Source: Amphiscolops sp. MND2022 (lineage: Eukaryota). Taken from it: a stretch of 64,000 bases of DNA. Shown piece by piece: positions 6,278 to 20,488 of the stretch; position 1 is the stretch's first letter, and every line of letters begins with the position of its first letter. The position numbers and the translations under genes were made by a program. The stretch lies in NCBI GenBank assembly GCA_964187785.1, contig OZ076409.1:46068001-46132000 (forward strand), in the 5' to 3' direction. The notes under the pieces were generated by a model. The model saw only the letters and a list, made by a program, of their open reading frames with translations. It was not told the DNA's origin and searched no databases.

Positions 6278-6656
6278 TGTCAGTGACTGTGGTCGAGCGG
6301 CTATTCTGATTTTGTTTTAGAGACATTTTGGTTTTGTAGAACTTGTTTTATTCGAATGCTCAATTGGGTAACTTCTCCTTTGCTCAATTCTCTAACTTTA
6401 GAAAGAATACAATTTTGGGTAGAAAGATTTGTTTTATTGTAGCGATAAAGAAGGTTAGATTGTGATGAGATTAATTTAGTACAGTTTAGTTAGTACAACA
6501 AGTTCTCGGTCTGTTCGTTCTTCTGATCCGCTCGTCCACCTTCTTCTTTAGTCCAGCGTGTTGAAATGTGATTGGCTGGCATTGTGATTGGTTGTCATCT
6601 ATACTTCAACGAAATTTTGTTAATAATGTACAATTATCCATGACATTGTCATGACA
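6278..6656 (-). repeat. 3' LTR of the Gypsy element
   Basis: Reads identical to 20110-20488. Contains two CCAAT boxes and two AATAAA (6347-6352, 6433-6438) on the minus strand. Confidence 0.97.
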
Positions 6657-6670
6657 CTCCCCGCTTTTAA
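6657..6670 (-). other. Polypurine tract
   Basis: Minus strand TTAAAAGCGGGGAG lies immediately before the 3' LTR. Confidence 0.85.
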
Positions 6671-7495
6671 GAAGAGGGAATGTCCCGGGTAGTTGAAGTG
6701 TTTCAGGTGGTGATGACGAGACGGCGACATAAAACAGAAGAACGATGAGTCTACCAAAGTTAACCAAGCAAAGCCTACACAGATGCCCAAAAAAAGGAAA
6801 AGTTACATATGACATAGAGAAGTAAAGTTGAAAGAAGCCTCAAAAAGAAAAGAGCAAGACAAAGGTCCTGCATGATTTAATGAAAGGTGATGCATGAAAG
6901 GTGAAAAAAGAGGGGCCAGATACAAGAGAAGGCCAATGAATCAGAAAATGTGACTTATTGACTCAAACAAAAGCCAGGCGATAACAACGTATGGTTGTTG
7001 ACAATGTTGTTGAAAGAGCAAATATGTTAACGAGATGAGACCGGGTGGTCAAAACAGCGGCACGTGTCAACGTGCGCACTACTCAGAATGTTTATTTGAT
7101 CTGACAGATAAACGAGTGAATGCAATGTGTGCTAGAGGAAACGTGGGCGGGCAAAATACACAAAAAGGAGCGAAAAGCAAGAAACAATGTATTTGCCAAA
7201 GTATGCGGTCAAAGAAGAGTATATTACGGATGTCCAGTTAATGAGGAAGAATTAAACAGAGAAATGTACAGATAAATAGCAGCAACAATCTCGGAACAAA
7301 CAGGATATTAGAATGGGACATATAATTGATGGCAGCAGCTGACTGTGACTCAGCCAGCTACTCAAGGAAATTGTGGCACATGTTTCCAATTATGGAACGC
7401 TAGATGGGTACAAACTATAAAAGGTACCGTTGCATTGAGGCACACAAAGTTCCTAGTCCTAAAAAGGAAGGAGAGTGACCTTTACAGGAAAGGTC

Positions 7496-9721
7496 TTAAA
7501 AATGCCTTTCGGCATGACGAGAAGGGGGCGGTGGGGGGTTGGGTTGCGGAGCTAAAAAGCACCTGTCGCGCCAAACAAAAGATTCATCATCACGTAAGCA
7601 CGGAATGTGTTCGGCGGGAACATGAAAAGTTGGTTGGAGTGTAATTTTATGAGTCTGTTTATTATCTTTGTCTTTCAGAAGATGGGTAAATGGCATGAAC
7701 TTATGCAAACTATGGTAGCGATGAAACAGGTACATAAAAAGCAAATGTAACAACATGGAAATTATGAAGCTACCAAGTCCAAGTAGTATTGTCATCTTCA
7801 GGGTGGACGTTTGTGCTAGTCTTGCTTGTATCGGCTGTTTAAGTTCAACCATCTGCATGGCAATGGGCTCAGCTAGGGCACGAAGAGCTTCTGGTGACTG
7901 GGCTGAAGTCGACGGCAAGTATTTGATCTCTTGTTTCATCGTGCGGAGAAGATCCAGATTAGCAGACGATTTGGTATTGTATGATGGCAGCTTGTCCAAA
8001 GGCGGCAAAGTACTGAGAATGTTAGCCAGAGGAGCCGGAAGATCAACATGGATTTTAATGGACGGCATTTGGGAACAAGTTTGGAGGTCAGACCGAATAT
8101 ACACGTTTGGTCCACGAATTTGTCGGCCACAGGCGAGGGTGAGAATGCATATACGGCAGCCCGGGTAGACCTTTGTGGAAAGGTGTGTAGTGTCATTAAG
8201 GTCTGACTCACGAAGCTCAAAGTCAGGAGAAGCAGAAAGGATGAGCCAAATTCCAAACTTCAAGTTGAGGGCTCGTTCAGAAACCGGCAAGGCATATGGG
8301 CGGAAATCACAGAATTTCATGGCTTGTACGAGGTTGCCAAAAAACAATAGTGAAAGACAGGAGGACCAAAGGCCTTCTGTCGCCAAGCCATGATGACAAA
8401 TGCTATAGCGGGTGGAACCAATACAGCGGGTGAGATCCGTACGAGAGACGAGAGCAGTCTCTCTACCATCCTCTGAAACGGCCAAAAAGTCCGCTTCTAG
8501 ATCCCAGATCATGGCATCTTCAGCGTCATCTTGTGGCATCGGGATCGGGATTGCTTCATAAAGGGTCATGACGGTTTGTCGAGAGGCCAAAGGAATTGAC
8601 ATCGTTAGGAGAAGGCCCTCTGGAAGAGCAACGACGTCCTGCAATAATCTCGCCTCATAGTAAGACAAAGCTTCATGGGGCGGTATCGCTAACGTCAAGC
8701 GATCCAAGGCTTTGTTCTGGATGGATTGTACCACTGAAATGACCTCATCAAGAGAAGCACGATCCAACAAAGACATCGGAATGTACTGATTCAGAAGAGC
8801 CGGGATGCTGTTGAGGAGGTTGAGCCGGTAAGCAAACAGGGCAGCACGATATGACTTGACATTGGAGTAAAACAAAGACAGAAGGGAGGCAATCGTGTCA
8901 AAGTTGAAATTTATCTGTTGACGCGTGAAGAGGAATTGGTCACAGTTCCTCATCACGTGGATGTCATCCCGAAAGGAGGCCATCTGTTGAGTGATGACAC
9001 GCCAATTGTCATTTTGGATTTCAGCCATCTGCTGCTGTAACTCACGGATGGCTTGAAGTTCCTTGCCAATCACAAAAAATTTATTGTTAGATTCAGTGGC
9101 AAGGTGTTGGATGTTATCAGAGATGGAAGAAGTCATCGCAAACATGCGGTTAATGGCATCCGCATTTTCTTCACTCTGGCAGGTTCCAAAAATGCCAGAG
9201 AGACCACATGAGCCAGAGCCCATAGAAACGCCAGTTCCAAAAAGGCCAATAGCTCCAACCGCAACCGCAGCCAGAGGCAGAGCACGAGGAACACGGCTCG
9301 AAGGTGGAGACGGAGGCGGTAACGAAAGGAACCTGGCAACTTCCACATGAAGTTGAGCTAGAGAAGAATCAGAGGCGTTGACTTCTTTTTGAACTTCTGC
9401 CATTAACCAATTGATGTCAAAGCCTTTAGTGCTGGTGTTCGTGAAATTTAAGTAACAATTGTACGTGGGCATGTCCCACATGGAATGAAGCGCCGTCAAA
9501 ATACGGGCCAAATCAGACTTGAGACTTACAGAGAATTGAGGAAATGGCAACAAAAATTGAACGTTGATAAACTTTTCTGCCATCAATATTTTACGATCTT
9601 CATGAAAGATAATCCCTTTTTTCAGGGGGCCATCAGAATCGTCAAATTCCGAAATGGGCGACTGAGCAGCATGAAGATGAATCGCAAGCAGAAAGGTCGC
9701 AAGAGGCAACAGAAGAGACAT
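7496..9721 (-). CDS. env: Envelope glycoprotein, class I viral fusion protein (F-like)
   Basis: ATG at 9721 starts a signal peptide (MSLLLPLATFLLAIHLHA). It is followed by a furin-type RVPR site, a hydrophobic fusion peptide (ALPLAAVAVGAIGLFGTG), heptad repeats, a Cys-rich region, N-glycosylation sequons and a C-terminal TM helix (TILLGLGSFIISMLLHLLFMYLF). It lies between pol and the 3' LTR. Confidence 0.9.
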   Translation of the reverse strand: MSLLLPLATFLLAIHLHAAQSPISEFDDSDGPLKKGIIFHEDRKILMAEKFINVQFLLPFPQFSVSLKSDLARILTALHSMWDMPTYNCYLNFTNTSTKGFDINWLMAEVQKEVNASDSSLAQLHVEVARFLSLPPPSPPSSRVPRALPLAAVAVGAIGLFGTGVSMGSGSCGLSGIFGTCQSEENADAINRMFAMTSSISDNIQHLATESNNKFFVIGKELQAIRELQQQMAEIQNDNWRVITQQMASFRDDIHVMRNCDQFLFTRQQINFNFDTIASLLSLFYSNVKSYRAALFAYRLNLLNSIPALLNQYIPMSLLDRASLDEVISVVQSIQNKALDRLTLAIPPHEALSYYEARLLQDVVALPEGLLLTMSIPLASRQTVMTLYEAIPIPMPQDDAEDAMIWDLEADFLAVSEDGRETALVSRTDLTRCIGSTRYSICHHGLATEGLWSSCLSLLFFGNLVQAMKFCDFRPYALPVSERALNLKFGIWLILSASPDFELRESDLNDTTHLSTKVYPGCRICILTLACGRQIRGPNVYIRSDLQTCSQMPSIKIHVDLPAPLANILSTLPPLDKLPSYNTKSSANLDLLRTMKQEIKYLPSTSAQSPEALRALAEPIAMQMVELKQPIQARLAQTSTLKMTILLGLGSFIISMLLHLLFMYLFHRYHSLHKFMPFTHLLKDKDNKQTHKITLQPTFHVPAEHIPCLRDDESFVWRDRCFLAPQPNPPPPPSRHAERHF

Positions 9722-19937: not shown

Positions 19938-20093
19938 ATTTGTAGAATGTGAAAGTAGATTTTTAAGAAGAAAATTTTATTGTGAAGATTCAGTATTTCA
20001 AGTGAGTTTTGTTACAGTACTTGCTGTTTCAGAGAGAAGAGATTTGAGCTGGTGGTGGATGGAAAAAAGTTCTAGCGAGCAAATTTGCGGAGA

Positions 20094-20109
20094 ATAACTC
20101 CTGTCACCA
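20094..20109 (-). other. Primer-binding site TGGTGACAGGAGT (probably tRNA-Leu-like)
   Basis: TGG follows the 5' LTR directly; the sequence resembles tRNA-Leu-type PBSs. The tRNA identity is inference. Confidence 0.75.
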
Positions 20110-20488
20110 TGTCAGTGACTGTGGTCGAGCGGCTATTCTGATTTTGTTTTAGAGACATTTTGGTTTTGTAGAACTTGTTTTATTCGAATGCTCAATTGGG
20201 TAACTTCTCCTTTGCTCAATTCTCTAACTTTAGAAAGAATACAATTTTGGGTAGAAAGATTTGTTTTATTGTAGCGATAAAGAAGGTTAGATTGTGATGA
20301 GATTAATTTAGTACAGTTTAGTTAGTACAACAAGTTCTCGGTCTGTTCGTTCTTCTGATCCGCTCGTCCACCTTCTTCTTTAGTCCAGCGTGTTGAAATG
20401 TGATTGGCTGGCATTGTGATTGGTTGTCATCTATACTTCAACGAAATTTTGTTAATAATGTACAATTATCCATGACATTGTCATGACA
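20110..20488 (-). repeat. 5' LTR of the Gypsy element
   Basis: Reads identical to 6278-6656; followed on the plus strand by the TSD GCACT. Confidence 0.97.

Follow-up and report, generated by a model that had tools for sequence, protein, structure and literature searches.

The 14.2-kb Ty3/gypsy element at positions 6278 to 20488 of the window carries a conserved antisense accessory locus between pol and env. The window is a 64,000-nucleotide stretch of the Amphiscolops sp. MND2022 genome (assembly GCA_964187785.1, contig OZ076409.1, positions 46,068,001 to 46,132,000), and the element, on its minus strand, belongs to Ty3/gypsy, carries env, and transposed recently; in the broad sense used in PMC13524379, it is an errantivirus. 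By the coordinates of the flanking open reading frames (ORFs), the gap between pol and env is ~3.7 kb, the size first reported for it, and holds plus-strand ORFs at 10264-10689 and 11115-11522. The original prediction, made from the letters of the window, counted two antisense genes here. Both genes exist, and we call them A and B, but the second ORF (135 amino acids [aa]) is merely exon 1 of the spliced gene B. Gene A is predicted to encode a cysteine-rich single-pass membrane protein, and gene B is predicted to join an integrase-type N-terminal/H2C2 region to an OTU-like protease, without a DDE core. We conclude that the gap is an accessory locus conserved across a lineage and not a one-off capture.

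Conservation is apparent both in close copies and in distant relatives. A genome search with the long terminal repeat (LTR), in which the best 40 of 109 candidates were scored, gave 20 LTR-selected elements, namely, the window copy and 19 others that bear internal sequence; two solo or truncated elements were also retrieved. Exons 1 to 4 of gene B were whole in 17 of the 20, partial in 1, and absent from 2, and gene B was retained in 8 of the 10 LTR-selected elements in which env is mostly deleted. Genome searches with exons of gene B scored at least 143 and at least 150 matches. Thirty further loci were drawn from those match lists and are thus biased toward B; in 27, B lay antisense between the pol and env of an LTR element that carries env or of what is left of one, and the others were 2 Polintons and 1 decayed Polinton-type copy. 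Identity among the B-bearing LTR relatives falls to ~47% in pol, 42% in env, and 30% in gag, and genes A and B keep their position, strand, and splice sites even across lineages that share only ~47% pol identity. One-off capture, the outcome that the original prediction had asked to be checked in other copies, is thus ruled out.

Gene B was modeled from conserved plus-strand blocks delimited by GT-AG sites. The predicted gene has five exons, 364 codons by arithmetic, and introns of 119, 81, 73, and 87 nucleotides, and all four intron phases are compatible in the window copy. Canonical GT or AG was found at 338 of 351 scorable splice sites. The ratio of nonsynonymous to synonymous substitution rates (dN/dS), summed over exons 1 to 4, was 0.25, 0.14, 0.10, and 0.21 for the pairs with unsaturated dS, which numbered 4 of 10. 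We conclude that gene B is under purifying selection. Many copies have stops or deletions inside the cassette, as would be expected if it were a neutral relic, or else an assembly artifact. That explanation is scarcely credible and is already refuted by dN/dS values of 0.10 to 0.25, by the conserved splice sites, and by independent insertions with distinct target site duplications (TSDs).

What gene B encodes was approached through profiles, relatives, and fold models. Exons 2, 3, and 4 matched a profile built from 8 genomic OTU domains at positions 20-33, 34-53, and 91-132, in order, and only 0, 1, and 0 of 40 column shuffles, respectively, reached the same score. Exons 1, 2, and 4 matched an intronless family of ~290- to 320-aa proteins with probabilities of 95, 91, and 76%, exon 3 being without a match, and one family member (P0083) passes the Pfam cutoffs for both Integrase_H2C2 and OTU. 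Related unnamed proteins of 274 to 318 aa exist in a public collection. Of 65 loci, 55 keep the Cys, 60 the His, and 62 the Glu predicted to be catalytic. The natural ORF that reads through intron 1 resembles Integrase_H2C2 clusters at a score of 0.82, which we treat as a lead only, and when the model of this ORF was used in two fold searches, the integrase N termini of foamy virus and Ty3 ranked first or close to first in each, although weakly. Neither a DDE core nor a GPY/F module is present: the 364-aa model leaves no room for them, and no rve match was obtained. A search for exon 1 homologues among longer proteins found none, and a profile search with exon 4 matched 4 unnamed fragments. 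Two loci on viral contigs were dismissed as B homologues, as the match spans only 14 residues, and an OTU match near a distant env (L153) was set aside because it looks like a host OTU exon.

The position of gene B is not reserved for gene B. Ten elements were chosen by env alone from the best 150 scored env matches, taking ones outside the B lists, and the slot held a JmjC-like ORF in 7, gene B in 2, and a stretch interrupted by other insertions in 1. The JmjC-like ORFs are intronless, 242 to 382 aa long, and in the same place and on the same strand as gene B; their C termini are basic and by eye resemble nuclear signals. One of the seven scored above the Pfam cutoff and another matched at an E value of 7e-4, while four of the five Pfam-negative ORFs were linked to these two by profile comparison (P 3e-4) with HxE...H kept. 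A-like ORFs precede the JmjC-like ORFs, and 7 of 7 tested outscored all 100 shuffles. In an integrase tree the B and JmjC cargos interleave such that 3 changes are needed, only 1 of which is forced by strong branches. The best reading of these sequences is that the accessory locus is modular, with A fixed and the enzyme slot exchangeable between OTU-like B and a JmjC-like protein. We note that the JmjC-like antisense ORFs are of at least two divergent types (L172:5786-6688, L176:5209-6108, L179, L182, L187, L191, and L175). At another pair of loci (L087/L088, G000:C2:38.29 Mb), gene B groups with one subfamily and pol sits on a long separate branch, a mismatch possibly due to cassette recombination or to decay.

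Gene B is not confined to Ty3/gypsy elements. The same gene, with the same intron positions and 37 to 62% exon identity, was found inside a young family of ~17-kb Polintons in 6 of 6 loci, each with terminal inverted repeats (TIRs) of 141 to 143 bp that start AGT and a 6-bp TSD. The integrase of this family was recognized by an rve match, and its PolB and capsid ORFs were recognized by eye only, without a Pfam match. The Polinton gene B (L071/L072 at G000:C12:10.71-10.73 Mb, L073-74, and L106-120) lies ~410 bp from one TIR; after it comes a tandem repeat of ~700 bp whose copy number varies. A quick tree nested the Polinton B among the LTR-element copies (SH-aLRT, an approximate likelihood ratio support, 99.7), but trees with it outside the LTR group were not rejected by the approximately unbiased (AU) test (P 0.61 and 0.19). 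Because the AU test did not reject these placements, we dropped the claim of a transfer from LTR element to Polinton. In a BEL/Pao family, 5 of 5 loci likewise have a more distant, intronless homologue of B on the strand opposite pol, and this antisense ORF passes the Pfam OTU cutoff. The family is ~7 kb long, and its ORF, with YPYY-like, H2C2-like, and OTU regions, lies between pol and the 3' LTR (L143:4006-5049, L144-L147).

Homologues in three element classes could mean that the cassette is a selfish passenger, a small mobile module descended from a Ginger1-like transposase, stripped of its DDE core and riding for its own sake on Gypsy, BEL, and Polinton hosts. Ginger1 transposases, as described in PMC2836005, share with B a YPYY motif, an H2C2 finger, a C-terminal OTU domain, and introns, so that B has the Ginger1 layout minus DDE; the YPYY-like reading of B was made by eye against that published description. 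Gene B differs from Ginger1 in having no DDE core, GPY/F, or TIRs and is cargo rather than a transposase. We noticed neither TIRs nor a TSD flanking B, its position is fixed, and its tree broadly follows the pol tree. Moreover, replacement of B in the same slot by an unrelated enzyme argues for a function that serves the host element. We regard the passenger explanation as improbable.

How the locus might serve the element is suggested by its cargo. We lean toward the view that the locus, a small membrane protein plus a swappable predicted eraser enzyme, serves to counter host silencing, and the main argument is that a single slot is occupied in turn by two enzymes of the eraser type that are unrelated to each other. 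With its integrase-like head, B would anchor its OTU domain on chromatin or on the DNA of the element, so that marks of the ubiquitin type could be removed there, and methyl marks would be the corresponding target of the JmjC versions. Antisense orientation would let intron-containing cargo pass through reverse transcription unspliced, the introns presumably persisting because their splice signals, being antisense, go unread in the genomic RNA. The cassette would be transcribed separately, with one antisense promoter feeding both A and B through a leader donor. We considered trans-splicing, as acceptors lie just ahead of both ATGs, but it is unneeded because a conserved upstream donor allows cis-splicing. 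Protein A may act as a surface partner of Env or as a small cell-cell fusogen.

Several observations weigh against a counter-silencing enzyme locus. Two LTR-selected copies do without gene B, and retention of the cassette in env-less copies may be passive, as those lineages are young. Single B exons had no Pfam or PDB match in direct searches, and the fold matches of the B head were below significance (Foldseek E value, 0.24; Z score, 5.4). The Asp of the OTU D-G-x-C motif is replaced by Gly in most B copies, such that activity is not assured, and the window copy, alone among the 65 loci, deviates in exon 2 at a single residue position where a zinc ligand is predicted. Among the JmjC-like ORFs, only 1 of 7 passes the Pfam cutoff, 5 of 7 are without a Pfam match, and one has no obvious metal-binding motif.

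Alternatively, the cassette might act on viral proteins or innate immunity and not on chromatin. B would then shield Gag and Env from ubiquitin-driven decay or edit immune signaling, whereas A would assist Env or antagonize a restriction factor. Viral OTU proteases are known immune antagonists, and gene A is head-to-head with env in every lineage examined. OTU domains are also present in adintovirus PolB (PMC8502044). This alternative sits poorly, however, with the integrase-type nucleic-acid-binding head of B, with JmjC-like alternative cargo whose basic C termini look, by eye, like nuclear signals, and with the fact that B outlasts env loss. We consider it unlikely, although less so than the passenger explanation, and regard it as the chief competitor of counter-silencing.

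How env came to be lost bears on gene A. Env is mostly deleted in 10 of the 20 LTR-selected elements, including two sublineages of 4 copies each with breakpoints common within each sublineage (deleted window spans, 7729-9741 and 7811-9558). Since each deletion is common to four copies, the env-less forms have multiplied, and with the cassette retained, env is dispensable for spread. Three copies of one env-deleted sublineage keep gag and pol open. One explanation is that A is a fusogen for cell-to-cell spread that resembles the FAST (fusion-associated small transmembrane) proteins (PMC12945298) and Drosophila sORF2 (bioRxiv 2025.03.14.642691), the latter serving as a precedent. By hydropathy scan, A is within the FAST/sORF2 range of 60 to 210 aa, with one transmembrane (TM) helix and a juxtamembrane basic patch, and its C-x11-CC spacing, found in 17 of 22 gene A ORFs, echoes the 11-residue spacing in the cystine noose of the p10 FAST protein, as do the juxtamembrane CC and basic patch of the window subclade, to which the post-TM CC is confined.

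Protein A nevertheless departs from those proteins in several respects. It is antisense and coexists with env, it lacks the N-myristoylation motif (MGxxxS/T) required by the sORF2 screen, its ectodomain of ~56 aa exceeds the 10 to 50 aa of that screen, and it has additional cysteines. Distant homologues start with a signal-peptide-like segment, unlike type III FAST proteins. For gene A of the window copy, we rejected a further exon upstream that would encode a signal peptide, because of an in-frame stop and the lack of an ATG. Moreover, gene A is broken in several env-less copies, and germline retrotransposition accounts for env loss too. Matches of A in Pfam and the Atlas were compositional or scored <0.9, with all of the Atlas matches below that value. 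The fusogen role is doubtful, a lead rather than a finding. What is conserved is a gene of ~80 to 140 aa, head-to-head with env, with a dN/dS of ~0.3 to 0.4 and, in divergent relatives, a similar GT...AG stretch of 32 to 38 nucleotides before it.

Taken to its full extent, the proposal would be an invertebrate clade of complex endogenous viruses whose antisense counter-silencing locus pairs a FAST-like fusogen that makes env optional with an interchangeable chromatin eraser (a DNA-tethered OTU deubiquitinase or a JmjC demethylase), the eraser gene circulating among Gypsy, BEL/Pao, and Polinton in one genome. We offer this combination only tentatively. To our knowledge, most proteins by which transposons counter silencing have been described in plants, and animal elements with predicted eraser enzymes would be directly testable by single-gene assays. 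The identity of the cargo points to host defenses that matter, namely, ubiquitin-type and methyl marks. Invertebrate errantiviruses have been treated as three-gene elements, and the present clade has accessory complexity like that of retroviruses. Finally, a five-exon gene common to an LTR element and a Polinton, introns included, clearly exemplifies the passage of genes between elements that replicate through RNA and elements that replicate as DNA.

The element itself is young and complete. Its LTRs differ at 0 of 379 positions, the identity ends exactly at TG...CA, and GCACT flanks each side, as the original prediction had read by eye. Five copies are 99.5 to 99.7% identical to the window copy and lie on three other chromosomes, each with its own TSD, and most of the family has LTR identities of 97.6 to 100% and its own TSDs. 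Transposition was thus recent, and the possibility, raised at the outset, that LTR identity is an assembly artifact is unlikely, as independent copies elsewhere, on other chromosomes, are each bounded by an LTR pair and a TSD of their own. Membership in Ty3/gypsy (Metaviridae) was judged from the LTRs, TSD, primer-binding site (PBS), and polypurine tract; from the Pfam order of protease, reverse transcriptase, RNase H, and integrase in pol; and from the closest PDB match of pol, Ty3 Gag-Pol (E value, 1.6e-43). The gag, pol, and env frames are all open on the minus strand, as first described, but gag and pol are two overlapping frames and not a single ORF (Table 1). Because the frames overlap and A-AAA-AAC precedes the gag stop, pol is probably reached by a -1 frameshift; the heptamer is also present where gag ends in relatives. 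A weak dUTPase-like region (Pfam E value, 0.023) lies at pol residues 178-276, between protease and reverse transcriptase.

The env product is, by its model, a class I fusion protein of the paramyxovirus F type. It has a signal peptide, an RxxR site, a hydrophobic peptide, coiled coils, and a C-terminal TM helix, and a Pfam search assigned it no family. An AlphaFold model built from 43 homologues (mean predicted local distance difference test score, 74) had paramyxovirus and pneumovirus F proteins as its top Foldseek matches (best E value, 4.7e-7). The env first recognized in the sequence is of a true fusogen type, and the third ORF of the element, as in errantiviruses, encodes a predicted viral fusion glycoprotein. 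Relatives of env are plentiful in the genome (746 candidates, the best 150 of which were scored), and many have long open frames.

Table 1. Coordinates of the element and its parts in the window; exon structures and protein features are predictions
Feature	Position	Strand	Remarks
Whole element	6278..20488	-	Ty3/gypsy, 14.2 kb
TSD, left copy	6273..6277	n/a	GCACT
TSD, right copy	20489..20493	n/a	GCACT
3' LTR	6278..6656	-	379 bp, TG...CA; 0 mismatches to 5' LTR
5' LTR	20110..20488	-	379 bp
Polypurine tract	6657..6670	-	Adjoins 3' LTR; read from sequence
PBS	20097..20109	-	13 nucleotides; complements tRNA-like 3' end abundant in genome
gag	18678..19937	-	Open frame 18678-19976, ATG 19937; C-terminal zinc knuckle
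Predicted -1 frameshift heptamer	18681..18687	-	A-AAA-AAC, ahead of gag stop
pol	13414..18696	-	1760 aa; protease, weak dUTPase-like, reverse transcriptase, RNase H, integrase, long Ser/Pro-rich tail (Pfam)
env	7496..9721	-	741 aa; open frame 7496-9796, ATG 9721
Predicted 5'-leader intron ahead of gene A	10228..10263	+	36 nucleotides, GT...AG; by eye, sequence only
Gene A	10273..10689	+	138 aa; ectodomain with C-x11-CC, single TM helix, then CC and a long basic tail
Gene B exon 1	11160..11518	+	ATG 11166; integrase N-terminal extension (YPYY-like), first half of H2C2-like zinc region
Gene B exon 2	11638..11909	+	CxxC, linker, OTU-like catalytic Cys motif
Gene B exon 3	11991..12163	+	OTU-like helical region, weakest match
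Gene B exon 4	12237..12436	+	OTU-like C-terminal half, His-x-Glu
Gene B exon 5	12524..12620	+	Short acidic tail, stop

Each piece of the locus has a separate precedent: spacers in Tor4b, antisense ORFs in Retand, swappable ORFs in rotifer elements, 2-oxoglutarate cargo in orchid, sORF2, and OTU on Ginger1, Helitrons, and adintovirus PolB. HBZ of HTLV-1, to which the original prediction compared the antisense genes, is an LTR-driven bZIP protein unrelated to the products of A and B. The HBZ comparison holds for antisense orientation but not for the product, as nothing bZIP-like is encoded here; HBZ is also an antisense spliced accessory gene in a retroelement (mentioned in PMC11963269). The metazoan errantiviruses surveyed by Chary and Hayashi (PMC13524379), whose env is of the F type, share with the window element a Ty3/gypsy pol, the gag-pol-env order, a paramyxovirus-F-like env, and near-identical copies, and they differ from it in that the window element is 14.2 kb long with a 3.7-kb antisense cassette. 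The first filter of that survey admitted a pol-env gap of ≤1 kb and a total of ≤10 kb, with wider manual extensions for some taxa, and surveys that limit the gap can overlook such elements. The terms "antisense," "OTU," and "JmjC" were absent from its supplements in a search of 7 supplements.

Other systems are alike in part. Oikopleura Tor4b (PMC4402516) has an F-like env with an internal promoter and a pol-env spacer, but antisense genes are not reported in the passages covered. Plant Retand/Tat elements (PMC11963269) have lineage-wide antisense ORFs 3' of pol, some derived from a transposase (TRP28); they differ in lacking env and in their domains, and introns are not mentioned in the passages covered. 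LTR elements of bdelloid rotifers (PMC5408684) have a swappable ORF3 with enzymatic cargo exchanged between lineages and classes, and the AlkB of an orchid Gypsy element (PMC9289625) is a 2-oxoglutarate enzyme carried as anti-host cargo. In both cases, however, the cargo occupies the position of env and not a place beside it, and OTU and JmjC go unmentioned in the text covered. Full-text literature searches, which did not extend to Repbase, subscription journals, and bioRxiv supplements, and term searches in the errantivirus survey and its supplements gave no description of a gypsy element that carries env together with OTU or JmjC cargo in antisense.

The surroundings of the element are repetitive. 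The tRNA matching the PBS is presumably tRNA-Leu, an assignment made by pattern that tool checks did not confirm, as neither ARAGORN nor Rfam found a whole tRNA in the PBS-matching loci returned. The tRNA 3'-end-like motif has 945 matches genome-wide and also occurs in a dense tandem array with ~240- to 300-bp spacing at G000:C8:35.59-35.64 Mb. Because both flanks (5700-6277 and 20489-21050) match a dispersed repeat family, also present at 36.0-37.5, 39.6, and 41.1 kb, the element was placed among or inside repeats. A 38-bp tandem repeat family lies on either side of the insertion (window 1104-1795 and 23148-23395), and farther along, window 49860-60507 holds a ~10.6-kb element with long inverted ends around a 104-bp tandem array of >80 units.

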